A DNA stretch of 64,000 nucleotides from assembly GCA_965198005.1 (NCBI GenBank), contig CBDAOI010000002.1, positions 704,001 through 768,000 of the forward strand. Direction: 5' to 3'. The notes under the pieces are model-generated. The model saw nothing but the letters and a program-made list of their open reading frames with translations. It ran no database searches and was not told where the DNA came from. The DNA is from Spirochaetia bacterium. Lineage in GTDB: Bacteria > Spirochaetota > Spirochaetia > SZUA-6 > Bin103. Both the position numbers and the translations under genes were made by a program. Shown piece by piece: positions 21,707-60,176 of the stretch (positions within the stretch are counted from its first letter, which is position 1; every line of letters starts with the position of its first letter).

Positions 21707-21935
21707 TCGATAACTCCTATCGTTTGAGAGTACGAAGTTCACTGCCGGTCCCTCGCCTACTCTCGACGTATGCCTGCAATCGCAGGCGGTCAGAAAGCGA
21801 GGGCGACACCCTGGCGCGTCCCGGCGCGGCGGCTCGCCGCTTGGGCTCGATGCGCCATACCTGGCTGTCGTAGTCGTGTCTTGGTCGTGTCTTAGTCGTA
21901 TCCGGTCTTGGGCTGCATCCCTTCCTCCTTTTTGT
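21707..21935 (-). ncRNA. SBP leader, family 1, copy A (candidate cis-regulatory RNA)
   Basis: Homologous to 54667-54895, 57921-58122 and 62984-63185; conserved hairpins and uORF. Confidence 0.75.
21892..21918 (-). CDS. Leader peptide MQPKTGYD (copy A)
   Basis: AGGAGG SD 5 nt upstream of ATG; identical peptide in four copies, with a CAG/CAA synonymous difference. Confidence 0.7.
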   Translation of the reverse strand: MQPKTGYD

Positions 21936-22400
21936 CGATTTGGACGCACCGACCGCGCGACCGCGCGGCGGGCGCCGCGACCTGGGTCATTTGGCGCCAC
22001 GTGCAGCGCCGCTACCCGGGTACCCGGGTGGGCGGCGCAGCGGTGCCGAAGGCGCAGGTAGGGCCCAGTGAATGCCGCTGCGGGATCAGTCCGAGCGGTT
22101 AGTGATTCTTGATCGTCAGGTGTATGACAGAGTCCCGCGCCCGCCCGTGGGGGGGGGGACCATAAGCGCTAACTTGTTGTGGGCGCTACAGGGACCGTCC
22201 ATGGCTCTACGGTGCGACTGGCAGTAGCACGGACTGTAGCCGGACCCGTGACTCGGGTCAACCAGCCAGATCGAAGTAAGCTGACAACTGAGACAGCCGG
22301 CGCCGTGGCGGCTCCCCGCATCAGGTGATTGACGGCACGTGGCAACGAGCGTTATATTAGCATGCAATAAGCATCGAAAACCAATCCTGAGAGGCGTGCA

Positions 22401-24501: not shown

Positions 24502-25077
24502 ATGAATGCGACGCGGATCGCAGGGCTGGCCGCCACGCTGATCTGTCTGGTTGTCGTCGCGGCGAATGCTCAAGGAGGAGGCGCGCCGCGTTGGGTGCAC
24601 GACTGGGGCACCATCGCGGCCGTAGTTGCTGCCGGGGTTGCGGTCTTTGGATTGCAACTGAGTGCACGCAAGGAAGCGCGGGAGGCGCGTAGGGAGGACC
24701 GCGAGGAAGCGCGGGAGGCGCGTAGGGAGGACCGCGAGGAAGCGCGACGAGCGCATGACCGGATCGGCAGCAACCTCAATAGGCTGGACGCCAAGATCGA
24801 AAAGCAGGACGCCAAGATCGAAAAGCTGGACACCAAGGTTGACGACCTGCGCACCGACGTGACCGCCAGGATTGACGACCTGCGCACCGACGTGACCGCC
24901 AGGATTGATGGCTTGCGCACGGACATGACCGCCAAGGTTGATGGCTTGACCCGACAAGTGGCTGGCGTCGACAAGCGCTTGGCTGTCGTAGAGATCAGGT
25001 TGGAGCACGTAGAAGATACGTTGGGGAAGATGGACGGACAGACTGAACGGCAGGAAGACCCGGCAGTTGCAGGATGA
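24502..25077 (+). CDS. Membrane-anchored coiled-coil protein with 11-aa tandem repeats
   Basis: SD upstream; two hydrophobic segments; 33-bp repeats EAREARREDRE x2 and DDLRTDVTARI x3. Confidence 0.75.
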   Translation: MNATRIAGLAATLICLVVVAANAQGGGAPRWVHDWGTIAAVVAAGVAVFGLQLSARKEAREARREDREEAREARREDREEARRAHDRIGSNLNRLDAKIEKQDAKIEKLDTKVDDLRTDVTARIDDLRTDVTARIDGLRTDMTAKVDGLTRQVAGVDKRLAVVEIRLEHVEDTLGKMDGQTERQEDPAVAG

Positions 25078-25254
25078 AGCGCCACGACGACAGTCAGCGC
25101 AGTGGCCGGTTGGCGGTGACGCAGCGCGATGAGCGCGTTGGGTCGCGCTTGACACGGATTTGGGCGGCCGCGTACACTCGTCCGCGAATGGGCACTGACA
25201 GCATCCAGCCCGACTACCGACTACCGACTACCGCTAGCCGCGCAGCAGCCGACC

Positions 25255-25705
25255 TCGCGGCGCCGGTGCTGACCGCGGCACCATTGATGCGTGTGGCGCA
25301 CAGCCGCCACGCATCTGTGCGTCCAACGGCTGACCGCGTCGGCCGCAAACTTCACCGGTCCACACCAGCCGGCGTTGCCGGCTCCTCTATACAGACAACC
25401 GACGCATCTGTGCCCGACCAGAGTTGTCGACGACAGATGCGCGCTAGCCGCGGCACCGGCTGGTCCGATGGCCGAGCCACCGTCCTGTCAAGGCACCCAA
25501 TAGCTCAAGAAAGGGGGTGCAAAATGACACTCAAAGAGCCGTAGGCGCGCGCGGGGTGAGCCCGGGTGAACCCGGTGAGTCACACGCCGCGCGCTTTCCG
25601 TGTATTTGACTCAAACTGGCCGTCCGCGTTGCGGGCCCGAGAGTAGCCAGGGAGCGGCAAGTCGCTCCGCAATACTCTCAAAAAGACAAATCTATGGAGA
25701 ATACC
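25255..25705 (+). ncRNA. SBP leader, family 2, copy E (candidate cis-regulatory RNA)
   Basis: Colinear homology with 33345-33793; hairpins with compensatory changes; contains a uORF. Confidence 0.7.
25524..25544 (+). CDS. Leader peptide MTLKEP
   Basis: AAGGGGGTG SD; homologous to MILKEP at 33613 (GAG/GAA synonymous). Confidence 0.6.
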   Translation: MTLKEP

Positions 25706-27499
25706 ATGAACTATATGGCAAGCATTACGAGGATCTTCGCGGTTGCGTTGGTCCTCGTCCTGACCGCAACCGGCGTCTGGGCCGCCGGCGCAGAAGAGGC
25801 ACCGGCAGCCGCTGCCGACAAGAAGTATGTGACCGACCCCTCCACCGGCAAGGTGGTGAGCGCGCCGGAGTATGGCGGGACATTCGCCCATGCCGTAAGG
25901 AACGAGCCTTCGAGTATTGCCGACACCTGGTTCCAGCCCGCGGCGGCGGTTGTCGTCGCTGCTGTTGCAGAGAGGCTGGGCGTTCCGGACTGGGCAGTAG
26001 ACAGGGACGAATATGCCCACACATCAGAGATCACGCTGGCAACTCCCCTAAGAGGGGAGCTGGCTGAAAGCTGGGAGATTTCCCCGGACGGCCTCACCTA
26101 CACCTTCCATATCCGCAAGGGGGTTCGCTGGCATAACAAGCCACCGATGAACGGTCGGGAGCTGACTGCCGATGATATCGTGTATAACTTTCATCGGGTG
26201 ATGGGTATGGGCAGCGGCTTCACCGAACCTTCCCCCACTGGCTTTACCAGGAATCTGCCATTCGAATCGATAGCGGCCACCGACAACTCGACGGTTGTTA
26301 TGAAGCTCGAGGAGCCAAGCCTCGACGCGCTGAACTTTATCACCACCGATTTTACCGGCAGCATATTACCCCCCGAGGTAATCGAGCAATTCGGCGACGT
26401 CAAGGATTGGAGGAACCTGGTCGGCACTGGACCCTATATGCTGACTGACTGGGTCGAGGGCAGCTCGATAACCTATGAAAAGAATCCTGACTACTGGGGC
26501 TTCGACGAAAAATACCCGGAAAACCGATTGCCCTATACTGACATGATAAGGACCCTGGTCATGCCTGAAGAGTCGACATTTGTGGCGGCGTTACGCACGC
26601 GTCGGCTTGATTTCACGGGTGTCCTCAGCGGATCTTCAATAACGTCACTCGACAAGGCAGAGAGCCTCCGGCGCACCAACCCTGAAATCGTGCAGTGGCC
26701 CCATCTCAATCGGTCGGACAATTCTCATGTGTTTGATGTGGCCCAGCCGCCTTTTGACGACCTGAGGGTGCGCACGGCGATGCAGATGGCACTGGACCTG
26801 GATACAATCAACAATACGTACTTCAAGGGTTTAGCAGTCTCGACACCTTACGGATTGTTAAGGGTCCCTGGGTATCACATCCCATTTGCAGAGTGGCCCG
26901 AAGAGGTCAAGAAGGGCTACATGTATGACCCGGAAGGTGCCGAGAAGCTCCTTGATGAGGCTGGATACCCGCGCGGTTCGGACGGAATCAGGTTTAAAAC
27001 GACCGTCAATCACTACGTATCGTTCGACCTCAACTATCAACAAATAACCGCTGAGTACTGGCGTGAAATCGGCGTTGATGTAGAGTTTGACGTAGCGGAC
27101 GGTCCTACGCTTGCCGCTCGTAGAAAGGACCATACTTTTGAAGGTATGATCACTTTGATTGCGGCTCTCACCTGGTCGCCGACCGCAGCGCTACGCTTCT
27201 GGTACTCGGAAGGAGGATGGACCGAAGACAACATCAATGACCCGGATTATGACGCCATGTACGACGCCGCCGCAGCCGCTGCCACCCCCGAGGAGCTGCA
27301 GAAGCTGGCTATAGAGCTGGATATGTACGAGATCGAGAGGCACTGGCATTTATGGGGTCCTATGGTCCCTCAGTTTATCGCGCACCAGCCGTGGGTCATG
27401 GGTTATAACGGTGAAGTCGATCTGGGGAGGATCAGTCAGCGCGTGATCTACGCCCGCCTCTGGATTGATAGTGAGCTGAAGGAAGAGATGGGTCATTAG
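25706..27499 (+). CDS. ABC transporter substrate-binding protein, family 5 (copy E)
   Basis: Signal peptide, PEYGGT, LAESWE, GTGPY, PFDDLRVR; SD GGAG before ATG 25706 (25694 is an alternative start). Confidence 0.93.
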   Translation: MNYMASITRIFAVALVLVLTATGVWAAGAEEAPAAAADKKYVTDPSTGKVVSAPEYGGTFAHAVRNEPSSIADTWFQPAAAVVVAAVAERLGVPDWAVDRDEYAHTSEITLATPLRGELAESWEISPDGLTYTFHIRKGVRWHNKPPMNGRELTADDIVYNFHRVMGMGSGFTEPSPTGFTRNLPFESIAATDNSTVVMKLEEPSLDALNFITTDFTGSILPPEVIEQFGDVKDWRNLVGTGPYMLTDWVEGSSITYEKNPDYWGFDEKYPENRLPYTDMIRTLVMPEESTFVAALRTRRLDFTGVLSGSSITSLDKAESLRRTNPEIVQWPHLNRSDNSHVFDVAQPPFDDLRVRTAMQMALDLDTINNTYFKGLAVSTPYGLLRVPGYHIPFAEWPEEVKKGYMYDPEGAEKLLDEAGYPRGSDGIRFKTTVNHYVSFDLNYQQITAEYWREIGVDVEFDVADGPTLAARRKDHTFEGMITLIAALTWSPTAALRFWYSEGGWTEDNINDPDYDAMYDAAAAAATPEELQKLAIELDMYEIERHWHLWGPMVPQFIAHQPWVMGYNGEVDLGRISQRVIYARLWIDSELKEEMGH

Positions 27500-30200: not shown

Positions 30201-31105
30201 GTGATAGTGACCCCCCCTCGGCGTTTTTAGGGACCCCGGGGTCGGCATTCAAAGGGACCCCAGGTCGGCACTGAAAGGACCCCCCTCCTCGGCATCGAAA
30301 AGGACCCCCCTCATGATGCACGGTTGGTGCGTGCACACAACGAACTACGTGAGGAGGGTCAGAATGGCCAGGAGGACATCGACGATGGAACTACAGGATA
30401 TCGTCCGACGACTGAGAATGGGGCAGTCGATCAAGGCGATCAAGCGTGAGACCGGCAAGCACCGGCGCGTGATCCGCAGGCTGCTGCTGCTCGCCGAGCA
30501 GGAGGGGTGGCTGGATGAGCAGCATGAGGTGCCGTCCGAGCAGCAACTGCAGGAGGTGTACCACGAACAGCGGAGCGGCGAGGAAGGCCGCCGGCATCCG
30601 CTCGACTCGCACCGTGAGCAGATCGAGGGGTGGCGCGAGGAAGGCTACAGCTTCCTGGTGATCCACAAGTTGCTCGAAAAGCGGGGGGTGGAATACTCGG
30701 AGACCACGGTGCGCCGCTACATCCATCGCCACTTTCCGAAGGCGGTGCGACCGGTGATGCGGCGCGAGACGACCGCTGGCGAGGTGATGGAGGTGGACTT
30801 CGGATACCTGGGGCTCACCTGGCACACGACCACGCGCTCGCGGCGGCGCACCTGGGTGTTCTCGGGCCGGCTACGGCACTCCCGCCGCGCCTACCGTGAA
30901 GTGGTCTTCGATCAGAAGCAGCAGACCTTCTTCGCTTGCCACATCCACGCCTTCGAGTGGTTCGGCGGCGTGTCCGAGAAGGCGACCCCGGACAATCTGA
31001 AGGCGGCCATCATCGTCGCTTCCTTCGAGGACCCGGTGGTGAACCGCGCCTATCGCGAGTTGGCGCTGCACTACGGGTTCCTGATTTCGCCCTGTCTGCC
31101 TTACC
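30200..31105 (+). mobile_element. istA: IS21-family left end and truncated istA
   Basis: Five GACCCC-containing repeats at ~23-bp period (30209-30310); ORF from 30364 with GEVMEVDFG and PDNLKAAI, cut after CLPY; no istB. Confidence 0.85.
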
Positions 31106-31248
31106 TCATGAGCCAGCCCAGCGGGCCAGCAATTCTCGGTGAACAAAAATTGAGAGGGTCGGCGTAGGGGGCAATGGCGGGCGGGACGGCACGGGACGGC
31201 ACGTAAGTGGTCGTATAGGTCATGAGTATGTAATAACTCGATCCCAGG

Positions 31249-32601
31249 GTGGTCATGCTGTCTCCTATGGCAAGAGGTCGCCGCAGAGGTCCATTATTAC
31301 TTCGTTTTCGTGCGCTCCTGGTCTCCTTGAACCTGCACGCCGCCAAGGTCGTCGATACCCGCCAAGCCAGCAAGGTCCGGTACTCCCTACAGGATTGCTA
31401 CGTGTGTGGTTTCGCCTTGTTCTACCTCCAAGACCCTTCCGTGCTGGAGTTCCAACGCCGCTTCCAGGACGAACTGCGCACCAACAACCTCAACTCTACG
31501 TTTGGCGTCGCTCAGATCCCTGCCGACTCCCAGTTCCGCGATCTGCTCGACAGCCATGACTATGAACCGCTGCTCGACTGCTTCGGCGACTGGATAGGGC
31601 GCATGCAGGACGCCAAATGGCTGCAGCACTACCAGTTCCTCGACGGTCGCTATCTCATCACCATGGACGGCTCCCAGTACTTCAGCTCGTACCAGGTGAA
31701 CTGTGAGTGCTGTCTGACCGCCACCAACAACGGCACCGTACGCTACCACCACGACATCCTGCAGACCGCCATCGTCCACCCCGACAAGCGGCAGGTGCTG
31801 CCGTTGGCTCCCGGGTTCATTCACAACGCCGATGACTCTGGCGCCAAGAATGCCAAACGCCGCAAGCAGGACTGTGAAATAAAAGCCGGCTACCGTGCCT
31901 TGCAGCGCATCCGTAACGACCATCCCCGGCTGGCTGCGGTGATCGTCGCCGATAGTCTGTACTCCAAGCAACCGTTCATCGAACAGGTGCGCGCCGCCCG
32001 CTTCTCGTTTCTGCTGGTGGCCAAACCGGAGGATCACACCAGCCTGTACCAGGATATCGACGGGCTGCGCCGCGGTCGGCTGCTGGACCACCACTGCACG
32101 ATCGACGCGACCGGGGACCGGCATGAATACGAGTGGGTTACCGGGGTGCCGCTGAACGGCAACCCCCGCAGTCCCAAGATCAACTTCGTGTACTACCGCA
32201 TCGTACGTGCCGGCACGACCACCTATCAAAACGCCTGGGTGACCGACTTGGTGCCCAGCGCTGGCAGCGTAGCGCGGATCGTGCGTGCGGGACGAGCACG
32301 CTGGAAGATCGAGAACGAGGGGTTCAATACGCTGAAGAACCAGGGCTACCACCTGGAGCACAACTTCGGCCACGGTGACAAGTACTTGTCGGAGGCGTTC
32401 TTCGTGCTCAATCTGCTGGCCTATTTCATGCACCAGATATTCGAGCTGGTGGACGGTCTGTATCAGCAGGTGCGGGCTGGGTTCGGGTCGCGCCGGGAGT
32501 TCTGGGGCGCGGTCCGCGCCACGTTTCGGCTATTCCTGTTCCCGTCGTGGGACCAGGTGCTGGTGCGGATGAACTCGCCGCCGCAGCCGCTGCCCGTGTA
32601 G
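31249..32601 (+). mobile_element. DDE transposase (ISNCY-like), apparently intact
   Basis: ITMDGSQYF, KQDCEIKA, VADSLYS, GRARWKIENEGFNTLKNQGY; second copy at the window end. Confidence 0.88.
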
Positions 32602-33344
32602 CGCTGAACGTTATCATCCCTGATTAGTGCCTGCGTCGGACCGGGTACCGCGCATACCGCGTCCGGGTAACCGCGCCGGGAGACTTGGCCGGGGGGCTGG
32701 TGTGCTCCCTGCGCCGCCAGCAGGCGCTTGGTGCACGGCTCCACCCTGGGCTCCGGTGTGGGTCAGCCGGCGCGCCCTGCCAGCTGAGCACACGACGCTG
32801 CCTGTGCCGGGTCGCCCACCGCCACCTCCGACCCCTCGCAGGGCAATCGACTGAACTATTCTTGGGGATGAAGGGACGCGGGCAGTGTTCGGTATTTTAT
32901 GACAGAGTAAGCAGATAGCTCTACGGAAGGGGGCGCGAGGGAAGCAGATGCCGAACGGGTCCCATCCACGTCACCGAATTTAGGTTTGACAACCGCCGGA
33001 ATAAGCCTTCCAATACTCATTGTGCTGTTAGTCTCGGTGAGTGGCTGGCCGCGGAGCGGAGCGAGGCATGAGGCGATCGTGTGGGAGAGTTCCCACCGGC
33101 TGGCGGGGGCACCTGAATGCCCGCTTGACTGTTTGCCGCGCGTGCGGCAGACTGCGTTCTCATGGGCACCGTGATGCGTGACGACACGTCCCAGCGCTCC
33201 CACCGGTTAGCGGTAACGCAGCCGGTGCATCCTGCCACCACCACTACCCGTTCACCGAGAACTGCTGCCCAGCGGGCGGTCGCGGTTGACGGAGCTGGCC
33301 CGGCGGTGGGCTCACCGCTCACCGACCCGCGCGACAGCCGTTCG

Positions 33345-33793
33345 CTCGGTGCCGGTGCTGAGCGCGGCACCACCGATCCGCGTGGCACACACTCGCCACG
33401 CGTCCGCGCATCGAACGGGCGACCCGTTCGCCCGCAAACTCATACCAGTCCACACGTGCATGCGCAGCGACGTTGCCGGAGCGAGAAGGGGCACGCGTGT
33501 GCGCGACCAAACTCGTAGGCCACAGATGCGCGCTAACCCGTGGCAGCGGCTCGGCGATCGCCGGGCCACCATTCTGTCAGAGGAACCTGTAGCTCAAGAG
33601 AGGAGGTGGAAAATGATACTCAAAGAACCGCACGCGCGCGCGGTGTGAGCCCGGCCGAACCCGGTGAGTCACACGCCGCGCGCTTTCAGTGTAATTGACT
33701 CAGGCTGGCTGTCCGCGTTGCGGGCGTCAGAGTAGCCGGGGAGCGACAACTCGCTCCGCAATACTCTGGAGATAACATTTTAAGGAAGACACG
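33345..33793 (+). ncRNA. SBP leader, family 2, copy F (candidate cis-regulatory RNA)
   Basis: Homologous to 25255-25705; CAGAGTA/TACTCTG here versus GAGAGTA/TACTCTC (covarying pair). Confidence 0.7.
33613..33648 (+). CDS. Leader peptide MILKEPHARAV
   Basis: AGGAGGTG SD; the TAG of copy E is CAC here, so the frame extends to a TGA inside the hairpin arm. Confidence 0.6.
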   Translation: MILKEPHARAV

Positions 33794-35572
33794 ATGAAAA
33801 ACTTTTTGACAATGACCTTCGCGGTTGTGTTGGTCCTGGTGGTGACCGCAACCGGCCTCTGGGCCGCTGGCGCGGAAGAGGAGCCGGCAGCGGCGATGGA
33901 GACGGAAATGGTGGAGGAAGCTGGACCGCAATACGGTGGGACGATTACCATGATGGACGCATATCTCGGGCGCTTCCCGCCTACAGAGTGGGACCCAGCT
34001 AAGTTTGTCTGGCCGTTAATGGTCTATGTTGAACATTTCGAGCAGCTTCTTGGTGGAGACTGGCAGAATAGGGGGCCACGTGGCACCAATGAGTGGCCGT
34101 TCAATATACGTTCAGGTCCTCCTAATGATTTTCTATCACCTGTTTTAGCTGAAAGCTGGACTACGCCCGATGACACAACCGTTATTTTCAAAATACGTCG
34201 GGGAGTCATGTGGCATGAAGCGCCGGGAGTAATGGCATCAAGGGAGCTGACAGCGGAGGATGTAGCTTATCACTGGACTCGTACTCTAGCGTCAGACAAG
34301 GCCTGGAGCATATATGGTGCAGTTGAGTCGGTAACCGCCACGGATGAGTACACGGTTGAATTCAAGTTGGCCTCTTACACGCCTGATTGGATGCTTCTTA
34401 TAGGAAGGGGCCATTTACCGACGTGGATCGCGAGTCCTCCAGAGCTGGTGGAGGCGGGACCAAGTGACTGGAGGAACCATCGTGGGGTAGGGACAGGCCC
34501 GTTTTTGCTCGATGACTTCGTGGAAGGCACCTCGGTAAGTTACGTAAGGAACGACAATTACTGGCAAACTGAAACCATCGATGGCAAGGAATACGAGATT
34601 CCGTTCATCGACCGCCTGGTTAAAATTCTAAATCCGGATAGAGCTGCCCAGATCGCTGCGTTACGAACAGGGAGGCTGGACCAACTTAATGCAGTTGGCG
34701 CGCAGTACGTCCAGTCGCTACAAGATACAAATCCCGAAATAAAGTTTATTGGGAGACCAGCAGGCGGGTCCTACTTAGTAGGCATGAGGCTAGATACGGC
34801 GCCCTTTGACGATCCGAAGGTGCGGAAAGCAATGAGCATGGCTATAGATCGACAAGGCTTTATTGCCAATATATGGGGTGGTGCGGGAGAGATTTTAAAC
34901 TTTCCGGCACCTGCGAACCTGCCAGAGACTGTCTATACTCCTCTGGAGAAGCTACCGGAATCAATTAGGGGGCAGCTTGAATATAACCCCGAGCGTGCGA
35001 GGCAACTATTAGCCGAGGCGGGACTCGCGGACGGTTTCGAGGCGACTCTGCAAGGATATGCAATAGAGCCTTGGGAAGATATAGCTTCGTTACTGGTAGC
35101 TTTCTGGGCTGATATCGGAGTCGACGTTTCAATCGATTTGATTGAGAAGACTACTATGGATGCCATGTTTACAGCCAAGGAGCATGGGCCGCTTTCAATG
35201 TTTACCGTTGGAGGAGGTGTTGATGCGCTTGGTGTAATACAGGGACGATACATCGAGCCCCTGATATATAATACACCAATGTTTGAGCATCACCCTGAAT
35301 ACGCTGAATTTAGAGAGCGATGGCAGCAGGCATACGATAAAAGGGACCTGGTTGAAAAGTACAAGCTAACCAAGCAGTTGAACCAGGAGGCCTTATCGAC
35401 TGTCGCTTTCGCCCTTTTGCCAACTCCATATGTATACCTAGGTATCTGGCCATGGGTGGAGAACCACCACGGCGAACTCGCTCCAGCGGCGGGGACGGGT
35501 GGTGTAGGCCCGGTTATGGCTCGTGTCTGGATCAACAGCGCCTTGAAGCAACAATTGGTGGGAGGTCAATAG
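33794..35572 (+). CDS. ABC transporter substrate-binding protein, family 5 (copy F)
   Basis: Signal peptide, PQYGGT, LAESW, GTGPF, PFDDPKVRKA. Confidence 0.93.
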   Translation: MKNFLTMTFAVVLVLVVTATGLWAAGAEEEPAAAMETEMVEEAGPQYGGTITMMDAYLGRFPPTEWDPAKFVWPLMVYVEHFEQLLGGDWQNRGPRGTNEWPFNIRSGPPNDFLSPVLAESWTTPDDTTVIFKIRRGVMWHEAPGVMASRELTAEDVAYHWTRTLASDKAWSIYGAVESVTATDEYTVEFKLASYTPDWMLLIGRGHLPTWIASPPELVEAGPSDWRNHRGVGTGPFLLDDFVEGTSVSYVRNDNYWQTETIDGKEYEIPFIDRLVKILNPDRAAQIAALRTGRLDQLNAVGAQYVQSLQDTNPEIKFIGRPAGGSYLVGMRLDTAPFDDPKVRKAMSMAIDRQGFIANIWGGAGEILNFPAPANLPETVYTPLEKLPESIRGQLEYNPERARQLLAEAGLADGFEATLQGYAIEPWEDIASLLVAFWADIGVDVSIDLIEKTTMDAMFTAKEHGPLSMFTVGGGVDALGVIQGRYIEPLIYNTPMFEHHPEYAEFRERWQQAYDKRDLVEKYKLTKQLNQEALSTVAFALLPTPYVYLGIWPWVENHHGELAPAAGTGGVGPVMARVWINSALKQQLVGGQ

Positions 35573-38702: not shown

Positions 38703-38984
38703 ATGAGATTACTCAAGACGGGCCTCGCAGTACTCTGTGGACTCGCCCTCACGGCAACCGGCCTCTGGGCCGGCGGAGCCGAGGAGGAGGAGCCAGCCGC
38801 CGCTGAGGAGGAAGTGGCGTCGGTCATGGAAGAGCTGACGCTTACCAAACTTGACGGCACCACGGTGACAGTGGAGGTGAAACCGGCGCAATATGGCGGC
38901 TCGCTTGCCGTGCGACAAGGCTGGGATAAGAACCCGGACCACATTGACCCGTCCCGCACGCGTGACAGTGATAGGGCAGCATGA
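38703..38984 (+). pseudogene. Truncated family-5 SBP (N-terminus only)
   Basis: Same signal peptide type (TATGLWAGGAEEEEPAAA) and AQYGGSL; stops after 93 aa. Confidence 0.8.
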
Positions 38985-43379: not shown

Positions 43380-44564
43380 CTAACGCATCTCCGCTTCCGA
43401 CATCCGCAACTGCGCAGCTAGCTCGCGGAGGCCAATTGCCTCGACGTCAGGAGTCAAGGCATACCGCTCAGTGCCCGAGTACACTACGAACGTACGCGTG
43501 GGCCGCAGGTCGGCGCACGCATTTCTGAGTCCTTTGGACGCCCCGGGATCGAGCCCACGTTTGATCTCGACAGCCCAGCTACCCCGCGAGCCGCCGAGCT
43601 CCAGAACGAGGTCCACTTCGGCGCCAGCTGCCGTTCGGTAGAAGCTGACATCGGCCCCAGGGGCAGCGGCAAGCAGCGACTCGATCGCATAGCCCTCCCA
43701 ACTCGAGCCGACGACTGGGTGTCCGAGTAGATCGTCGAGTGTCTGGAGACGCAGCAGAGCATGGACGAGTCCCGAGTCTCGCACATAGATCTTGGGCGAC
43801 CTGACCAGCCGCTTGCCGACGTTGGCATGCAGCGGTTCCAGACGCCGCAGCAGCAACAGGTCGACCAGAAGATCTAGGTAGCGGGCGACGGTTGTCGAGG
43901 ACGCGCCGAAGCTCGCCGCGAGCCGCGACGCGTTGAGCAGCTGGCCCTGATTGTGCGCCAGCATCGTCCATAACCGGCGAAGCGTCTCGGCCGGAACCCG
44001 TGGCCCTAGCTGCGGGACGTCGCGCTCGAGGTAGGTCCGGATCAGGTCCTGCCTCAATAGAAAGCTGTCGGCATCCGTGGCGGCCAATAGACTGTCGGGG
44101 AACCCACCGCGCAGCCATAACTGATCCTGCTCGTTGCGATCGGGCGGAATTTCGGGTGCGGTCACGGGGCCCAACTGGACATACGCGATGCGGCCAGCAA
44201 GGCTCTCTCCTGACTGACGCAGTAGGGCGACCGAAGCGGATCCGAGGATAAGGAACAGGCCTGTGCGTCGCCCGCTTCGGCGTGCTCGGTCGATGACTCC
44301 CCGCAGCACCTGAAACAGATCCGGCGTGCGGTGGATCTCGTCGAGGACGATGAGCTTGTCGGTGTGCCGCTCCAGAAACAGCTCCGGAGCCTGCAGCTTG
44401 GCAACGTCCTGCGGCGCTTCCAGATCGAGATAGACGGATGGCCGAGATCGCGCGATCTTGAGTGCGAGGGTGGTCTTGCCGACCTGGCGCGGACCGACGA
44501 TCGCCACGGCTGCTTGCCGTTCGAGGGCAGCCACCACCTGACCTTCGACCGCGCGTTCTATCAT
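43380..44564 (-). CDS. AAA_14 ATPase with DUF4143-type C-terminus
   Basis: GPRQVGKT, LDEIH, ESLAGR, RGGFP, PKIYVRDSG, EVDLV...VEIK. Confidence 0.9.
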   Translation of the reverse strand: MIERAVEGQVVAALERQAAVAIVGPRQVGKTTLALKIARSRPSVYLDLEAPQDVAKLQAPELFLERHTDKLIVLDEIHRTPDLFQVLRGVIDRARRSGRRTGLFLILGSASVALLRQSGESLAGRIAYVQLGPVTAPEIPPDRNEQDQLWLRGGFPDSLLAATDADSFLLRQDLIRTYLERDVPQLGPRVPAETLRRLWTMLAHNQGQLLNASRLAASFGASSTTVARYLDLLVDLLLLRRLEPLHANVGKRLVRSPKIYVRDSGLVHALLRLQTLDDLLGHPVVGSSWEGYAIESLLAAAPGADVSFYRTAAGAEVDLVLELGGSRGSWAVEIKRGLDPGASKGLRNACADLRPTRTFVVYSGTERYALTPDVEAIGLRELAAQLRMSEAEMR

Positions 44565-44725
44565 CCTTGCATTTTCTGCGCGATTCTTGAAATTTGCAAG
44601 GATGGGGGATGGGGTTGTTTGATCTCCTCGAGATTTGCCCCAATCTCCCTCGAGATCTGCCCCAGCCCACCTGGACAGCCGGCGCGCGGCGATCTAACCT
44701 CCATAGCCCCCCAGAGCCCGCAACG

Positions 44726-45850
44726 ATGTCCCACGCCGATTCCCGACTCACCGATTCGCAACGGGCCCATCCGCGTCGCCCCGACGCTCTGCCGCCCCTC
44801 GCCGGGGTGCGGGTGATCGATTTCAGCCACTACCTGCCCGGCCCTCTGGCAGGCATGCTACTGGCCGATCAGGGAGCCCAGGTAATCCGGATCCGGCGTC
44901 CGCGAGCGGCCGCTGACGTGCAGCCGGCCGCTGGGGCGCAGCCGGGCGCTGACGTGCAGCTGGGCGCTGGCGTGCAGCCGGCCGCTGGCGTGCAGCCGGC
45001 CGCTGACGTGCAGCCAGCCGCTGGCGCTCAGCCGGGCGGCGACGTAGCCGCGGAGGCGGTGTTCGATCGCGGCAAACAGGTGCTGACCCTCGACCTGAAG
45101 AGCGAGGCCGGCCTAAACGCGGCGTGGCAATTGGTGAGCTCCGCCGATGTGTTGATCGAGAACTATCGGCCTGGAGTAATGCAGCGTCTTGGTCTGGGCG
45201 TGGACGAGGCAACGCGGCGCAACCCACGGCTGATCTACCTGTCCCTGCCTGGTTTCTCATCCATCGACGGCGATCACGCATCGCTGCGCGCCTTCGACGG
45301 CATCATCAGCGCCGCCACCGGCATGTTCACCGATCTCAACCGCCGCCGCCGCGAGCTGGAGGCACCGCCGGTGTTTACACCGCTGCCGGTGGCCTCCGCC
45401 TACGCAGCGGTCCACGGTGCGCTGGCGGTGACGCTGGCCCTGTACGCGCGCGAACAGACCGGCCGTGGCGAGGCGTTGGGCACCCACGACCAGCTGCTGG
45501 CCGCTGGCATGATCGACCACCCGTGGTTAGATTAGAGGACGCCAGCACCACCAACAACCTGCGGCATCCGGGCAACCTCTCCGCGGAGTGGCGATCCACC
45601 ATCAGCGAAAAGATGGCCGCCGCCTTCGTGCGACAACCCGCCGAATTCTGGGTGGCGAAGATGCGCCAGGCCGGTGTGCCGTTCAGTCTCTGCCGGACCA
45701 GCCAGGAGCGGCTGCACGCAGCCGAAGTCGAGGAGTCAGCGCTGAGCGTGGTGGTAGAGGACCCGGTACACGGCCCGGTACGGCAGTTCGGGCTGCAGAC
45801 CACGCTGGGGCGGACGCCAGACGAGTGCCTAGTGCTCAGGTCGTCCAGGC
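44726..45850 (+). pseudogene. CaiB/BaiF CoA-transferase, disrupted
   Basis: PLAGVRVIDFS, GPLAGMLLADQGAQVI, RGKQVLTLDLK, DVLIENYRPG; deletion near 45470 and in-frame stop at 45535. Confidence 0.8.
44909..45034 (+). repeat. 18-bp tandem repeat x7 (AADVQP-type) inside CoA-transferase
   Basis: GSCGCTGRCGTGCAGCCG units read directly from the sequence. Confidence 0.9.
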
Positions 45851-46125
45851 CCTCGGCATGGCGGGCTGCGGCCGCGGTGAGCGCATCGCGCGCGGCATCC
45901 ACCCACTCGGGGGTCGCGAAGGTGAGGTCGCCGATGCCGTCGGCCATGGCGGCCAAGAGGACCGACGCGGTGGCTGGGGCGGCTGCGGTGGCTGGGGCAT
46001 CAGGCTGGTGGTGTTGATCTGGCATGGTGGGCGGAGTGTGGCGTGGATTCGTCCCGCCGGTCGATAGCAGCGATGAGCATGATGAGGATGGCGACGCCGA
46101 CAATCGGCTGGTGCATGATTGGAGT

Positions 46126-46452
46126 GTGAAAAAGCGCCTCCGAAAGAAGCTGCGCCGGTTTGAGTTCCGCGAGCTCGGATTCGAAGTCCGGTTCTTGGTT
46201 GCCGAGACGGTGATCGACGATGCGCTGGACCGGTTCTGGGATGAGCTCATCGGCGAGGGAATCGAGGGAGCAGGCTTGATGTGTGGAGGTGGCGGTGACC
46301 ACGCGTGGGAGCTCGTTGTCTTTCGCGCGCGTGGATGCGCGACGGACGCGGATCGGGTGACGCTCGCAGAATGGTTGCAGCGGCATCCGGCCGTGAGCGA
46401 TGTAGAGGTCGGCCCGCTATTCGACCTCTGGCATGGTCCGGATGCGCCTTAA
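46126..46452 (+). CDS. YggL (DUF469)-family protein
   Basis: KKRLRKKLR..EFRELGF, CGGGG, VEVGPLFDLW; exact start uncertain. Confidence 0.8.
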   Translation: MKKRLRKKLRRFEFRELGFEVRFLVAETVIDDALDRFWDELIGEGIEGAGLMCGGGGDHAWELVVFRARGCATDADRVTLAEWLQRHPAVSDVEVGPLFDLWHGPDAP

Positions 46453-47369
46453 GCGCTTGCTGGGCGTGCGATTACGGTGTCCCGGTCCGCCAACAGGCTC
46501 CGCTGGGCCTCTGGGAGCGGGATCTCACGGCGGGTTCGCTCGAGAAAGAAGCTGAGGTGGGTGTAGCCACAGCTCTCGAGCAGCGCCAGCGCCGAATCGA
46601 ACCCGTCGGCGACGCGGTCGGGGTCGTGGGCATCCGCGCCAACTACCACCGGGATGCCGCGCTGCCGCATCTCGACCAGCATGGCGGGAAACGGGTTCAT
46701 CTCGGCGATGCTCTTGTTGACCCCCGAGGTATTGAGCTCCATGGCGATGCCGGTGGCCGCGATGCGGTCGAGCGAGCGGCAAATGTCGTCCATGATCGTC
46801 GCGGGCTGCCAGACCTCCACGGTTTCGTTCTTGACCAGGTCCGGGTGGGCGAGGCAGTCGAACAGCCCGGTCTCGGCCGCCGCAGCCAGCTGTTCGAAGT
46901 AAGTGCGCTGGTAGGAGCGCGCATCCCCGTCGAAGTAGCGCTGGCGGAATTCAGCAACCTGGGGATGCACGGAGCCGAGCACGTAGTGAAGATCCGCGCT
47001 GGCTAGCTGGCGTTCCACCCAGGGCTCGGTGCCGGCAAAGAAGTCGCACTCCAGGCCGAGGCGCACGTCGATCCGACCCTCCCACTGTTGCCGCGCCCGC
47101 TGCACGAGCTCCACGTAGTCGGCCAGCTGATCGGCGCGCATGCGCGAACTGGCCGAGTACCCGTCCGGCATGGGGTTGTGGCACGTCACCGTCAGGCCGC
47201 GCAGCCCGCGCTGCCAGGCAACTGCCGCATACTCCCCGGGCTCACCGCGGGCATGGTTACACAGCGGCGTATGCGAGTGGGTTTCGTATACCAGTCGTTG
47301 GTGTGGTGTCGGGGCGGAGGCTATGGGGAGACCTGCTTGGGGCGCGCGGGGACTTTCAAGCCGGCGCAT
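46449..47369 (-). CDS. PHP-family histidinol phosphatase (HisJ-like)
   Basis: HSHTPLCNHA, TCHNP, LGLECDF, LGSVH, AHPD, ELNTSG, GADAH; start uncertain. Confidence 0.87.
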   Translation of the reverse strand: MRRLESPRAPQAGLPIASAPTPHQRLVYETHSHTPLCNHARGEPGEYAAVAWQRGLRGLTVTCHNPMPDGYSASSRMRADQLADYVELVQRARQQWEGRIDVRLGLECDFFAGTEPWVERQLASADLHYVLGSVHPQVAEFRQRYFDGDARSYQRTYFEQLAAAAETGLFDCLAHPDLVKNETVEVWQPATIMDDICRSLDRIAATGIAMELNTSGVNKSIAEMNPFPAMLVEMRQRGIPVVVGADAHDPDRVADGFDSALALLESCGYTHLSFFLERTRREIPLPEAQRSLLADRDTVIARPASA

Positions 47370-47639
47370 CCTGGCACGGCGCATCCTCGCACAGGGTGAT
47401 GGGATGGGTCCATAAGGCTTCCTCATCCTCCGCCACCGCCTGTTCCTCGGTTTGGGATTCATAGTGCTCTATCAGTCGTTGCACGCGCGCCTCATCCCTC
47501 GGACGTAGCGTCCTTCATCGGTTTGTCCGATAGCGATACGCGAGCCCTCCCGTCCGGGCCGATCCTCGCCGGGAGACGCCAGTCGCTCAAGCCACCGCGT
47601 GTCGGCCTTCCCTGAGTTATCAGATAATGATAACTTACA

Positions 47640-48013
47640 TTGATGACGGCGCCGAACCGCGATCCCGGGCTCGACACGCTGCTCGACCTTCACGGTGTGA
47701 CGCTATTCGTAGACGAAGCAGGTCACTGGGTGAAGTTCATGGCGGTGCGAACCGACGTAACTGCGGAACGTCCGCACGGGCTCAGCTATTCGCTGACGCT
47801 GCACGCCCCGGACGGCACCAGGCTGGTCGGGTTCGACAATGCGCACCCGGTGAGGGAACGGCGCGACCCGGAACGCGACGACGCTGGCAGCATGACCACC
47901 GGCACCGGCTGCGAACAATCCGGGCCTACGAGTACAGGGACGCGGCAACGCTTCTGGAGGACTTCTGGACGGAAGTGGACGGCGTTCTGAAGGAGAGGGG
48001 ATCGATCCCATGA
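47640..48013 (+). pseudogene. DUF6516-like putative toxin, frameshifted
   Basis: PHGLSYSLTLH...RLVGFDNAH continues in another frame as HDHRH...LLEDFWTEVD; shift near 47870. Confidence 0.7.
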
Positions 48014-48390
48014 AGACGCTGAAGATCGGTATCGCCGGCTATGACCGGATGAAAGCGCGCACGATGGCGATCGCCCGGGGCGAGTACAAGCCCGCCAGGG
48101 GCGAGCCGACGGTCTGGTTCACCTCCATCGAGAGCTTCGCGAAGGTGCTCTCGCAACGCAATCGCGAGCTTCTGGCCATGATTGCCCAGGAGAAGCCGGA
48201 CTCGCTCACCGAGTTGGCGGAGTTCGCCGGACGGAGCACGTCGAACCTGTCGCGGACGCTGAAGACGATGGCGCGCTACGGGCTGGTGGAGTTGAAGGCG
48301 GGGCGTCGCGGCACGTTGATCCCGCGTGTCCCGTACGATCGGGTGACGCTCGACGTTTCGTTGACGCCGCCGCCGCGGAGGGTTGCGTGA
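48010..48390 (+). CDS. HTH transcriptional regulator / putative antitoxin
   Basis: WFTSIESFAKVLS..NRELL...SLTELAE..GR..SNLSRTLKTM; ATGA overlap with the upstream gene. Confidence 0.8.
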   Translation: MKTLKIGIAGYDRMKARTMAIARGEYKPARGEPTVWFTSIESFAKVLSQRNRELLAMIAQEKPDSLTELAEFAGRSTSNLSRTLKTMARYGLVELKAGRRGTLIPRVPYDRVTLDVSLTPPPRRVA

Positions 48391-48559
48391 AGTGCGCACG
48401 GACGTCCATCAGGCGTGTACCCGCTCCAGTTCCGCCCTTGCCGCCGCCAGCCGCGAGCGCCAGTCGGGCGGCAGCTCCACCCGGCCGGTGAGGCGAAAGC
48501 CGGCGGTCAGGGCCCGCAGCCAATGATAGGAAGAGTAATCGAGAGCCGAACGAGCCTAA

Positions 48560-48997
48560 GAGGGTGTTGACATAATCAAGCGGCGGCGGCGAGTCTGCGG
48601 GCGAGCATGCGTGCGCCAGTAAGCCACACCCAGGCTTCTGATACCGAGAGCAGGCGATCATGGTGCATAATCAGGCGGCGGCACCGTTCGTGCGATACAC
48701 ATTCTCCCAGGGCGGAAACTCACGCGCCTCGCTCCTGCTTCACCCCTGCCTGCCGTAGTGCTTTGCGCACCGTAGCCGCATTAACCGTCAGTTCAGTCCG
48801 CCGCATGAACTCGGCGGTCACTTCGTCAAGCGTCGCGTGGGGTTGGGCGGTGACGATCTCGCGCAGGATTTCGCGCCCGGATTCGTCGATCTTGGGCGGG
48901 CGTCCCTTTCTCTTCGCCAATGATCCTCCCCTGATTACCGTTTGCTCCGGTAATCGACAGCATCATTGCCCATTCAGTTTATTATGTCAACACCCTC
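48560..48997 (-). mobile_element. Internally deleted IS5-family element (MITE-like) with intact ends
   Basis: 17-bp inverted repeats GAGGGTGTTGACATAAT, TAA duplication on both sides; remnants KGRPPKI (HTH), FPPWENVY, RRLIMHHDR...SEAWVWL. Confidence 0.88.
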
Positions 48998-49040
48998 TAA
49001 GGGCCGGCGCAAGAATAAGTACCTAGTTTTGCCTGTTGTT

Positions 49041-49265
49041 TCAGGACCGGGGACGGATGGTGTAGTTGCGCAGTGGTTGGACTTGGTGAGGTTCGAGGGC
49101 GATGGAGGCGAATTCAGTATTGGATACCTGGAGGCCCCTCGGGTACTGCTGATCAACCAAGTGGGCGGCCACGCGGAGTCCGGTCTGTGTGGTGGAGGTG
49201 CGGATGTGGTTGAGGACGGTGTCGTAGTCGCGCAGCGGGACGCCGGCCCAGTTTTTGCTGCACCG
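49041..49265 (-). mobile_element. ISAzo13-family transposase C-terminal remnant
   Basis: NWAGVPL...TTQTGLRV..HL...YPRG...NYTIRP. Confidence 0.8.
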
Positions 49266-49462
49266 TGCCGTGAAGATCGTCATCGAGGGCAAAAGCTATC
49301 GCATGGACGCCTTTGTGCGCCGTTCACGGGAACTGCCGCAGTCCTCGGCGGAGCCACGATGAGGGTGATGCGGGCCGTGGCAGGGGGGGTGTCCGGATAC
49401 CACCTCGCCGGTGGACGGCGGCCGCACCGCCCGGACCCGTTACGTAACGGAGTGCCGTGACC

Positions 49463-49750
49463 ATGGCTTTGACCAACGCCCAGCGACAACGGCGCTATCG
49501 AGAGCGCCGCAAGGCACAGCAGCCGCGCCTGCATTACCGCACGCCGCAGGACCGCAGGTCGCGACCGCAGCGCTGGCAGGAGGCGGTGCGCACCCTGCTC
49601 GACCTCCAGGGTGAGTACCAAGCGTGGCTCGACAACCTGCCCGACAATCTCGGGGAGTCCGCGCTCGCTCACCAGCTGCAGGCGATTTGCGCCCTTGAGC
49701 TTGCCGAACTGGAGAGCGTCGAGCCGCCGCGCGGGTTCGGGCGTGACTGA
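49463..49750 (+). CDS. Small hypothetical protein in mobile-element context
   Basis: ALTNAQRQRRYRERR...YQAWLDNLP...PPRGFGRD; coherent 95-aa protein-like ORF. Confidence 0.7.
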   Translation: MALTNAQRQRRYRERRKAQQPRLHYRTPQDRRSRPQRWQEAVRTLLDLQGEYQAWLDNLPDNLGESALAHQLQAICALELAELESVEPPRGFGRD

Positions 49751-50833
49751 GGGAAACCCGCAGCACGCCCGCTTTAGTTCCTTGGCGGCCCCCGGCGGCC
49801 CCTGGGGCCGCTACGGTGCCGCCAGGGACTCCTCACGGTCGCTACGTGCAGATTCTCCCGTGCAAAAAGCCACTGATTCCGATTTGAGAGAGCCAGCCGT
49901 CCAGAAATGAAAGCCACCCGTCTGGCGCGAACAAACCACTTGGAGGCTGATTTCCGGACGGGGTCAGGTCCGACCCTCCGCTACGCTCCTCCCAAATCCG
50001 TACAGGAGGGACGCCGCGCGCGGGGCGATGGGCCGTTCTGGGGCGCGGCGCGGCGCTCCGGAGGTCCAACCGCGAGCCGCTCGCCGGTCGAGTTCGAGGC
50101 TGCTCGGACAGGACAGGCAGCACGCGCGCCGCTACGCTGACGATCTCGGCCTCGGACCCGACCCCCCTTGCACAACCCAACCGACCTACGCCACCCGGTG
50201 TCTCGTTGCGACATTGATTCTCATCGTGATTGTCGCCCGATTCTCATCCTGATTGTCGCGCCACGCAGAATCGCCCAAAACCGTGGGTTTCACCCTCGAT
50301 CCCGCAGGCGTCTCCCACCGGTCCGGGTATCTTCTGCCCGGTCGCGACTCCAACCTTGCCGCGCTCGCTCCGATGCGCGCACCTCCACTGCCGTGCGCTA
50401 CTCTCTCCGCCGCCACGCAGGGGCTCGTCCCGCGCGGATTCCCCGGCGTGTGCTGCACTGCTTGGATTCGATCTACACACGCACGCTACCAGACGACAAT
50501 CGCCGATCGCTGTTTATCTCCCAATGACGACAGACCGCAGTCCCCGAACGAGAGGTCAGGGTTGACTCAATACTCGCCCGGTAGTACAACCTAAACGACC
50601 AGCCGGGAAGGGGGGTCCCTTTGGATGCCGACCTGGGGTCACTTTGCCTGCCGATTCACACCACGTGCCCCACGACCGACCCAACGCCTGACGGCGCCTC
50701 GAGACCGTCGCCCCCGCCTCCTGAATGGCAGACAGACTGTTTCTCGATGCGAACGTGTTGTTCTCGGCTGCCTGCGCCAGCACCACAACAAGAGCTTGCC
50801 GCACGGTAAGCGCCCTGGTGGGCTCTTGCCGCC

Positions 50834-51816
<983 letters not shown>

Positions 51817-51827
51817 TGTTTGACCGC

Positions 51828-52781
51828 CTACTGGTAGCGGACCCGGGGATCCAGGACCGCATAGACCAGGTCGATCATCAGGTTGATCCCCATCACCGCG
51901 CTGCCGAACACCAGGTTGATGCCGGCGACCACCGGGAAGTCTCGGTCGTTGAGAGCCACCAGCATCAGACGACCCAACCCGGGCAGGTTGAAGATGTTCT
52001 CGATGATGACGGCACCACCCACCAGGATGGGCAACTGCAGGCCGATCATCGTAACCACCGGAATGAGGACATTCTTGACCGCATGCCGCACCACCACCAC
52101 CCGCTCCTTCAGGCCCTTGGACCACGCCGTCCTGATGTAGTCCTGCCGCAGCACCTCCAGCATCATCGTGCGCGTCATCCGCATGGTAGCCGCAGCCAGG
52201 TAGGTCCCCAGAATCAGACTCGGAATCAGGAACATGCCGAGATTCCCCAGCGGGTCTTCGCTGAACGTGATCAGCCGCATCGGCGGCGACCAGCCCCACC
52301 AGATGGCCGGGTAGATCATCACCATCAGGGCCAGCCAGAAGTTGGGCGTTGCCAGGCCCAGGATGGCGATGGAGCGGCCGGCGTAGTCGACCGCCGTATC
52401 CTGGCGAATTGCCGAGTAGATGCCGACCGGCAGGGCTATCGACAGCCCGATGACGATTGACAGCACACCCAGCTCGATGGTTACCGGCAATCTACCGAGA
52501 ATCTTCTCCTCTACCGACCAATCGCCCATCAGTGAGCGGCCAAGGCTGCCGTGCAGCAGGATATCTCCCAACCAGCGGCCGTACTGCACGTAGACTGGCT
52601 GGTCCAGTCCCAGCATGCGCTCGAGCGCTACACGGTCCACCCGCCCCAGGCCTGCCAACCGACTTTGCATGACGTCGATGACATCGCCCGGAATGAAGCG
52701 GACCGAGAGAAAGACCAGGACGCTCAGGATGAACAGGGTGGGGATGACCAGCAACAACCGCCTGATGACGTGGGCTCTCAT
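51828..52781 (-). CDS. OppB/DppB-like permease
   Basis: Near-identical to 60177-61130; EAA motif present. Confidence 0.93.
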   Translation of the reverse strand: MRAHVIRRLLLVIPTLFILSVLVFLSVRFIPGDVIDVMQSRLAGLGRVDRVALERMLGLDQPVYVQYGRWLGDILLHGSLGRSLMGDWSVEEKILGRLPVTIELGVLSIVIGLSIALPVGIYSAIRQDTAVDYAGRSIAILGLATPNFWLALMVMIYPAIWWGWSPPMRLITFSEDPLGNLGMFLIPSLILGTYLAAATMRMTRTMMLEVLRQDYIRTAWSKGLKERVVVVRHAVKNVLIPVVTMIGLQLPILVGGAVIIENIFNLPGLGRLMLVALNDRDFPVVAGINLVFGSAVMGINLMIDLVYAVLDPRVRYQ

Positions 52782-52856
52782 GTGCTACGCCTCATCGCGA
52801 TCTTCGCGTCATTTTGCACCCTCGGAGGGGGACAATCCCTCGTCCCCTCCGCAAGG

Positions 52857-54666: not shown

Positions 54667-54895
54667 TCGATAACTCCTATAAACTCCTATCACTCGAGAG
54701 TACGAAGTTTACTGCCGGCCCCTCGCCTACTCTCGCGGTATGCCTGCAATCGCAGGTAACCGAAAAAACGAGGGCGACACCCTGGCGCGTCCCGGCGCGA
54801 CGGCTCGCCGCCCGGGCTCGATCAGCCATACCTGGCTGTCTTGGTCGTGTCTTAGTCGTATCCGGTCTTGGGTTGCATCCCTTCCTCCTTTGGTC
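54667..54895 (-). ncRNA. SBP leader, family 1, copy B (uORF MQPKTGYD at 54852-54878)
   Basis: Homology to the other three copies; SD and uORF intact. Confidence 0.75.
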
Positions 54896-55043
54896 GATTT
54901 GAACTCGAATCCCGTACCGGCGCAAGCATGGCACCGGCGCGGCTACGTGTCAACCACGATTCGACAATCGACAATCGACAATCGACAATCGGACCCGCTC
55001 CGAACCCATCAATGCACGTGCGGCGCCACCCTCGGCGGCGCTC

Positions 55044-55928: not shown

Positions 55929-56120
55929 GCGCTCACCAGTATACACCTTTCCGACACTCCCTCCAGCTCGGCCAACCGGACCGCCAGGGAAGGCGACCGC
56001 CGATGGCCGATGGTTGCCTACGGCCTCGACTGGTCGGAAGCGAAACGAGGCGTGTTCTACCCGCATAGACACTCGGAGGGGGACAATTCCGTTGCCCCCC
56101 TCCGGCAGGCTAATGAAAGG

Positions 56121-57920: not shown

Positions 57921-58122
57921 CGATAACTCCTATCACTCGAGAGTACGAAGTTCACTGCCGGGCCCTCGCTTACTCTCGAGGTATGCCTGCAATCGCAGGC
58001 GGTCAGAAAGCGAGGGCGACACCCTGGGTCGTCCGGACGCGGCGGCTCGCCGCCCGGGCTCGATCGGCTTGGCTACGGCTTAGTCGTATCCGGTCTTGGG
58101 TTGCATCCCTGCCTCCTTTGGT
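57921..58122 (-). ncRNA. SBP leader, family 1, copy C (uORF MQPKTGYD at 58080-58106)
   Basis: Homology to the other copies; CTCGAGAGTA/TACTCTCGAG 10-bp stem. Confidence 0.75.
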
Positions 58123-58279: not shown

Positions 58280-58299
58280 GGGGGGGGGGGGGGGGGGGG
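58280..58299. repeat. Homopolymer G20
   Basis: Counted directly; the homologous position at 22149-22158 is G10. Confidence 0.85.
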
Positions 58300-60165: not shown

Positions 60166-60176
60166 TGTTTGACCGC

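Follow-up and report, generated by a model that had tools for sequence, protein, structure and literature searches.

Leader peptides with the ribosome as sensor are known from single operons. In the tna operon of Escherichia coli, the 24-residue tnaC peptide senses tryptophan, has Pro as its last residue before the stop and blocks the loading of Rho; in ermC-type attenuators, rearrangement of the leader frees the Shine-Dalgarno sequence (SD) of the resistance gene; and mgtL, in the mgtA leader of Salmonella, is a single-locus element of 17 codons, several of them Pro codons, that acts with a Mg2+ riboswitch and Rho. A translation-aborting upstream open reading frame (uORF) has reportedly been described before a Mg2+ transporter. 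In E. coli, a C-terminal Pro-Pro in the full-length protein YbeL-PP impairs termination and arrests the ribosome (PMC3834316), and in Bacillus subtilis the leader of bmrCD carries bmrB, a small open reading frame (ORF) with alternative stem-loops, whose translation is required for expression of this ATP-binding cassette (ABC) transporter (PMC4191407). The element described here was found in two leaders within a 64,000-nt stretch (the window) of Spirochaetia bacterium contig CBDAOI010000002.1 (GCA_965198005.1), referred to as copy E (25500-25705) and copy F (33590-33793); all coordinates are forward-strand positions within the window. The host genus comprises uncultured, sponge-associated bacteria labelled Spirochaetia. 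Each leader holds, in a control region of 190 bases, an SD, a very short uORF, a GC-rich hairpin (P1), an alternative helix (P2) that takes up part of the P1 3' arm, and a separate 3' domain, and stands before a gene for an ABC-importer binding protein (Table 1). It is a new, genus-restricted, peptide-dependent leader, and its reading as a switch set by the ribosome is partly supported.

The bmrB leader, which works by ribosome-mediated transcription attenuation (PMC4191407), is the closest in design: it shares with the present leaders a small ORF and alternative stem-loops immediately upstream of ABC-transporter genes, but it serves a drug exporter at a single locus, with ribosome-targeting antibiotics as inducers and a demonstrated intrinsic terminator. 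The present leaders differ from it by a uORF of 6-11 codons and, as from the other analogues, by preceding importers, by their amplification to about 80 copies per genome and in that no canonical terminator was found. Their likeness to tnaC lies in a nascent peptide acting in cis that, in copy E, ends in Pro-stop, with a held ribosome that would control downstream transcription; Pro-stop, however, occurs in just 17 of the 124 copies parsed for peptide, the conserved residues number six, and a GC hairpin takes the place that an unstructured, C-rich rut site has in tnaC. Shared with ermC-type attenuators are a sequence-selected short peptide, a putative stall site one footprint from the first hairpin arm and a second helix made from the freed strand, whereas the main SD, that of the binding-protein gene, lies about 120 nt downstream with unchanged predicted accessibility, and an antibiotic context is absent here. 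Like mgtL, which has no sequence relation to it, the element is a Pro-containing uORF in a transporter leader that would decide between alternative stem-loops through the way it is translated. The construct name YbeL(E159P) (PMC3834316) implies a natural Glu-Pro end, the last two residues of MILKEP; in contrast to YbeL-PP, Pro is followed by a sense codon in the majority of copies here.

The uORF is a selected mini-gene, the strongest result of the analysis. It was compared across 132 distinct copies, taken from the own genome and from loci of congeners, and its variation per position is three-periodic: third positions of codons 3 (Leu), 5 (Glu) and 6 (Pro) vary in 30, 36 and 22 copies, with all four Pro codons occurring, whereas at codons 3-6 a changed first or second position is seen in just 0-2 copies. 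Over these four codons, 6 of the 8 possible synonymous change types were found (88 copies), against 6 of the 28 nonsynonymous types (7 copies). The 12-nt segment CTCAAAGAACCG (CTC-AAA-GAA-CCG) has 64 of its 66 variant cells (97%) at third positions and ranks first among 80 such segments across the 5' domain. The start codon at position 1 is ATG in 118 copies, GTG in 8, TTG in 4 and CTG in 2, and at least 128 copies retain a start in frame; codon 2 is Ile, Thr, Val or Leu; and codon 7 is His in most copies and otherwise stop, Tyr, Trp, Glu or Leu. In a diverged copy (L043), a 6-nt deletion stays in frame and leaves the peptide VTRKDPRAA-stop. Because conservation is codon-periodic, the uORF is almost certainly translated, and, as in arrest-peptide leaders of the tnaC, ermCL, bmrB, msrDL and mgtL kind, conservation lies at the amino-acid rather than the nucleotide level. 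The product under selection is M-[ITV]-L-K-E-P, and codons 8-11 are shaped by the needs of the P1 arm and not by the peptide.

Much of this architecture had been proposed in a first-pass annotation of the window, namely a strong SD and a uORF M(T/I)LKEP in both leaders, a stem with its 5' arm at or inside the uORF end followed by TTTC, an alternative helix (25576-25613 and its counterpart in copy F) and read-through to 11 residues in copy F, and direct reading of the two copies bears all of it out. Its comparison of the uORF end with TnaC fits copy E but does not extend to the family, since codon 7 is free and Pro-stop is thus not the conserved feature; the 11-codon form of copy F is the majority.

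Classical attenuators of amino-acid operons (trpL, hisL, leuL, pheL), in which regulatory codons sense charged tRNA, likewise combine a short leader ORF with mutually exclusive helices, and two rare codons, AUA and AAA, are each kept in 130 of the 132 copies. MILKEP(HARAA), however, uses I, L, K, E and P a single time and has no codon run; the genes downstream are importers and not a biosynthetic operon; and the topology differs from the classical one, where the last hairpin on the 3' side is an intrinsic terminator with a U run and its 5' arm is taken up by the antiterminator, the strong P1 here being the first helix, P2 being made of the P1 3' side and a later segment, and the U runs measuring 0-4. 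We regard this explanation as barely credible. The two codons stand at positions 2 (25527-25529) and 4 (25533-25535) of the uORF, and synonymous ATC never appears; in the long ORFs of the genome, ATA accounts for 10% of the codons for Ile, and AAA for 20% of those for Lys. Their retention may reflect a general A-richness after start codons.

The position of P1 relative to the Pro codon is nearly fixed. Counting the first base of that codon as +1, the 8-nt arm GCGCGCGG starts at +9 in 119 of the 132 copies and spans +9..+16, which, by toeprint distances, is the stretch that fills the mRNA channel when the P site is occupied by that codon; a ribosome at the uORF start codon would not reach P1. 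The footprint from the putative stall codon therefore lies over one helix arm, which is the geometry of an arrest-peptide leader. P1 is present in the minimum free energy (MFE) fold of 54 of 55 copies (mean -33.0 kcal/mol, -41.8 to -21.7) and P2 in none of these folds. When the 30 nt surrounding the Pro codon were kept from pairing, P1 formed in 0 of 55 copies (by construction) and the P2 core in 25. Folding with the uORF footprint constrained had been suggested in the first-pass annotation, and RNAalifold with the uORF and the 5' arm held single-stranded returned exactly this core, GAGUC/GACUC, as the consensus alternative.

From these observations we consider, with middling confidence, that the element is a leader that senses the ribosome, and so a leader-peptide attenuator if the term is taken broadly, heading about 80 paralogous ABC-importer operons, and that the ribosome itself is probably the switch. 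The strong SD, which is seen directly, would load ribosomes onto the tiny uORF. A ribosome would then dwell with L-K-E-Pro-tRNA in the P site, because Pro donates the peptide poorly, both in transfer and in release, and because its helicase would there start to melt a hairpin of about -33 kcal/mol; Glu-Pro-stop, too, reportedly pauses ribosomes. The dwelling ribosome would cover +9..+16, so that P1 would be unable to form because its whole GC arm is occupied, and the freed 3' strand would pair with the downstream GACUC as P2, a weak and perhaps transient lock. Without a ribosome, P1 would close. The occupied form would be ON, and transcription or stability of the operon would be coupled to events on the uORF; the P1-closed form would be OFF, either because transcription would stop early or pause where the short U stretch lies or because the leader would become a substrate for processing or Rho. 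This assignment of states is the least supported step.

Several results weigh against such a switch. P2 amounts to only five invariant base pairs with almost no covariation. No terminator was found by scanning 24900-25800 and 33000-33900, and the leading U run after P1 (55 copies) is 0 in 9 copies, 1 in 8, 2 in 21, 3 in 7 and 4 in 10. P2 cannot be a classical antiterminator because its 3' segment is transcribed after the putative terminator, which leaves it at most a lock on the open state. Masking the uORF leaves the mean accessibility predicted for the main SD and AUG unchanged (0.467 against 0.464), with a rise in 3 copies and a fall in 5 of 60. An in-frame uORF start is missing in 3 of the 132 copies, and in one of these (L053) the binding-protein frame that follows is nevertheless open over at least 484 codons. 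Finally, sequence divergence among the copies is small because all come from one genus, and recent amplification or gene conversion contributes to their similarity. Two start-less diverged copies are also altered in the P2 3' arm, to GACAC in L053 and to GCCUC in L038, a joint loss of uORF start and GACUC that is a hint of linkage, no more.

The helices themselves are conserved unevenly. In 91 distinct sequences, P1 cells are 98.5% paired and most single changes are wobble-compatible; three pairs carry double changes versus 0.3 expected (1 of 500 shuffles) in an alignment fitted to P1, and none do in a MAFFT alignment. The outer P2 pair is unpaired in 28 of the 91 and the next pair, which shows three A-U to G-C exchanges, in 15; the CAC/GUG extension is often absent (unpaired in 28). 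The distance between the P2 half-sites varies through linker indels, and GACUC forms an invariant island in otherwise free sequence; conservation is patchy, with invariant arms beside free linkers. The covariation that the first-pass annotation had suggested looking for in an alignment of homologs is convincing in neither helix. Conservation of P2 in further homologs, which it had named as a test, holds for the invariant five-pair core but not for the outer pairs or the CAC/GUG extension, and its central proposal, that ribosome position chooses the fold, has uORF selection, Pro footprint geometry and P1 dominance on its side and the weakness of P2 (five pairs, formed in less than half of the masked folds) against it.

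The output of P1 closure is where the proposal meets most difficulty. P1 has the stem of an intrinsic terminator (mean dG -33 kcal/mol) without the U tract (at least 5 T in 8 nt): the 8 nt after P1 hold 5 U in 11 of 55 copies and 1-2 U in 26. The 'GCTTTC' tail, where the first-pass annotation had suggested mapping 3' ends, is no conserved U tract, the leading U run being 0-2 in 38 of 55 copies and the terminator scan empty. Canonical terminators are not enriched in 44001-64000 (9 found, 10.0 expected), and because of this 20-kb sample the usual terminator type of the genome cannot serve as a yardstick. Other routes to an output were tried and rejected: unmasking of the main SD by uORF occupancy (the 3 copies up and 5 down given above), an anti-SD pairing of the linker after P1 (copy E only, not general) and a small hairpin around the main SD and AUG (just 44.8% of cells paired).

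In a rival explanation, the uORF is translated and selected but P1 and P2 do not switch, a parked or cycling ribosome and a static GC hairpin forming a constitutive 5' device that would act against 5' decay or Rho or pace the folding of the 3' domain. Such a device accommodates the peptide signature, the weak P2, the failure to find a canonical terminator and the unchanged accessibility of the main SD, as well as the length and modularity of the leaders, with other hairpins upstream. It needs, however, neither the exact placement of the arm at +9..+16 nor the invariant GACUC island, and a second leader family has a U6 terminator-like site after its own uORF (below); we judge it unlikely.

That sister family (family 1) lies on the minus strand of the window at 21722-21960, 54655-54905, 57935-58140 and 62999-63200, before other SBP_bac_5 genes, and has 49 nhmmer matches genome-wide. 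Its uORF of 8 codons (MQPKTGYD-stop in the window) is unrelated to MILKEP. Across 13 distinct copies T-G-Y-D-stop never changes, although each of the four Gly codons is used, and residues 2-4 are free. Hairpins follow this uORF, one copy having a terminator-like stem with a U6 tail (54783-54771). Nascent-peptide control fits these findings best among the readings considered, because two unrelated peptides, each conserved at the C-terminus, each precede a hairpin in similar leaders.

A bolder form of the ribosome-sensing proposal, which we hold to be doubtful, takes MILKEP to be a new minimal arrest peptide of six residues, with L-K-E-P selected and the A-site codon irrelevant, that together with the x-x-x-T-G-Y-D-stop peptide of about 50 further leaders would place more than 100 ABC-importer operons in one regulon read by the ribosome, without a transcription factor or riboswitch. 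If true, a sponge symbiont would have its whole uptake repertoire under a single translational signal. Should the peptide arrest the ribosome, the motif would be among the shortest effector-independent or metabolite-dependent arrest motifs, and the regulon a rare case of a very large one wired purely in cis. The module heads about 80 importer operons in this genome and hundreds across the genus. Roughly 250 natural variants (codon 7 stop or sense, codon 2 I/T/V, K-D-P in one copy) provide a ready-made mutational scan. For annotation, the leaders are a warning that long 'intergenic' regions here hold real, tiny genes.

The 3' domain (P3, P4 and P5, with a possible CUGGC/GCCAG pseudoknot) is common to both families and shows, in P3, P4 and P5, the best covariation of the leader, with 11 pairs carrying double changes versus 4.7 +/- 1.3 in shuffles (0 of 500). 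It could on these grounds be the regulatory core, a ligand- or protein-binding RNA to which the uORF and P1 are accessory. Its range, though, is one genus and it has no Rfam match; P5 is not kept in family 1; the candidate pseudoknot is 94% paired with one double change only; a shared aptamer in front of about 130 diverged binding proteins would have to recognise one ligand common to all; and peptide-level selection on the uORF would be left unexplained. This explanation appears distinctly improbable.

The size of the family was estimated with nhmmer, which gave 85 leader matches in the own genome (4.9 Mb, 66% G+C), 73 of them nearly full length; behind 81 of them lies an ORF that resembles the window's two binding proteins in BLASTP, and orientation and distance to the binding-protein gene are constant. 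The binding proteins belong to SBP_bac_5, and NCBIfam models named no substrate for them, all matches being far below cut-offs. Because both permease types follow on the same strand in 53 of 60 parsed copies, the leader can be said to head ABC-importer operons. Two covariance models were built, R1 from the 5' half of the leader and R2 from the 3' half. R1 found 81 copies in the own genome; seven congeners gave 56, 40, 32, 30, 5, 1 and 1, three further congeners 0 and 13 genomes of the sister genus 0. R2 was run on 61 genomes of the order, with stricter filters above 40 genomes, and was likewise restricted to the genus, matching nothing in 24 other genera. BLAST found the leader in 0 of 30 genomes outside the genus, and scanning one genome per species for the exact pattern turned up 44 loci, almost all of them in four metagenome-assembled genomes (MAGs) labelled Spirochaetia bacterium. 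Rfam 15 at gathering score gave no match in the whole window, and at E up to 10 gave chance-level matches only (17 bits or less) on 25000-25800. A literature search returned nothing on this element and no paper containing 'MILKEP' (supplements outside the search). Two short contigs filed under other phyla, L082 (JAPPFQ010000701.1) and L085 (JAKZSW010000151.1), from Acidobacteriota and Candidatus Tectimicrobiota MAGs, also carry the leader, which suggests mis-binning or transfer; L082, a low-coverage contig, has one extra base after the uORF ATG. Leader and gene fragments are also present in sponge metatranscriptome assemblies X1, X2, X5 and X6 (three studies), as short assembled contigs broken by repeats that give no transcript ends, strand or level and no cover over 24900-25061; they were not used as evidence.

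This distribution bears on two further explanations. The copies might be a duplicated cassette of promoter, leader and signal peptide, alike through recent amplification and gene conversion, with the uORF and helices incidental: DNA identity is high from the leader into the first ~190 nt of coding sequence, the range is a single genus in which copy number is highly uneven, from 0 to 81, and transposase genes lie between the operons. Conversion, however, homogenizes all positions and therefore gives neither third-position-only variation nor invariant arms beside free linkers; the periodicity of the uORF largely refutes this account, which we consider very unlikely. Alternatively, the TGAGTCA...TGACTCA inverted repeat or the GC palindrome might act as DNA, either as an operator to which a dimeric regulator binds or as an element that is mobile or repeated, in keeping with the invariance of both half-sites and the high repetition of the element. 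The orientation and distance to the binding-protein gene are nonetheless constant, the half-site spacing varies through linker indels, and the uORF signature would be unexplained; we give this possibility very little credence, less still than the cassette. The ribosome-sensing leader is the reading retained for the features collected in Table 1.

Table 1. Features of leader copies E and F, with positions in the window.
Feature	Copy	Position	Strand	Sequence and remarks
SD of uORF	E	25513-25519	+	GGGGGTG; GGAGGTG in most copies; GGAGG-type motif upstream of the start in all listed copies
uORF	E	25524-25544	+	ATG ACA CTC AAA GAG CCG TAG, MTLKEP-stop; three-periodic variation, conserved peptide M-[ITV]-L-K-E-P
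P1 5' arm	E	25547-25559	+	GCGCGCGG-G-GTGA; 8-nt GC arm at +9..+16 from first base of Pro codon
P1b apical hairpin	E	25562-25575	+	CCGGG-UGAA-CCCGG; dispensable, deleted in several copies
P2 5' arm	E	25576-25585	+	TGAGTCA-CAC; overlaps inner part of P1 3' arm
P1 3' arm	E	25580-25594	+	TCAC-ACG-CCGCGCGC; then TTTCC (TTT at 25595-25597)
P2 3' arm	E	25600-25613	+	GTG-TATT-TGACTCA; GACTC is the invariant island within the variable linker
3' domain	E	25614-25683	+	CUGGC 25616-25620; P3 25622-25636; GCCAG 25646-25650; P5 25651-25668; R2 match 96.4 bits; covariation
P4 of 3' domain	E	25639-25645 with 25673-25679	+	GAGAGUA/UACUCUC
SD and probable start of binding-protein gene	E	25696-25708	+	SD GGAG 25696-25699; probable start ATG 25706; in-frame ATG 25694 is the ORF-list start
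uORF	F	33613-33648	+	MILKEPHARAV-stop (TGA), 11 aa; runs through P1 5' arm, stop inside P1
P1 hairpin	F	33636-33683	+	5' arm 33636-33648; 3' arm 33669-33683; then TTTC
P2	F	33665-33702	+	TGAGTCA-CAC 33665-33674 with GTG-TAAT-TGACTCA 33689-33702
3' domain	F	33703-33772	+	R2 match 88.9 bits

Leaders E and F are 84% identical over 587 alignment columns, and the binding proteins downstream of them only 30% identical. The fold of the copy E leader has -84.2 kcal/mol (z = -3.55; 1 of 200 shuffles as good). Similarity between the two copies extends about 240 nt further upstream (25149-25500 and 33350-33590) through several inverted repeats, and this long upstream form is common to about 8 copies in the genome. 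A promoter-like TTGACA-18-TACACT stands at 25149-25178, and 25209-25232 holds three tandem copies of CCGACTA. Among 60 own-genome copies, about six sequence classes can be told apart in the 130 nt upstream of the uORF SD, each class with its own hairpins and conserved over more than 130 nt; the leaders are modular assemblies.

Conservation is 0.86-0.92 in the leader and 0.37-0.87 in coding sequence. The DNA for the signal peptide and first mature residues (…TFAVALVLVLTATGLWAAGAEEEPAAAADKKYVTDP…) at 25727-25812 and 33809-33894 is nearly as conserved as the leader, the paralogues being otherwise ~50% identical, and a third, weaker copy of signal-peptide-encoding DNA lies near 38.7 kb (38715-38800). 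Two transposase-like ORFs, at 30313-31167 and 31249-32601, are located between the two leader-bearing operons and match rve (below the Pfam cut-off) and DDE_Tnp_1. Elsewhere in the window, 44889-45063 holds a tandem array of an 18-nt unit (CGGCCGCTGACGTGCAGC-like) in at least 7 copies.

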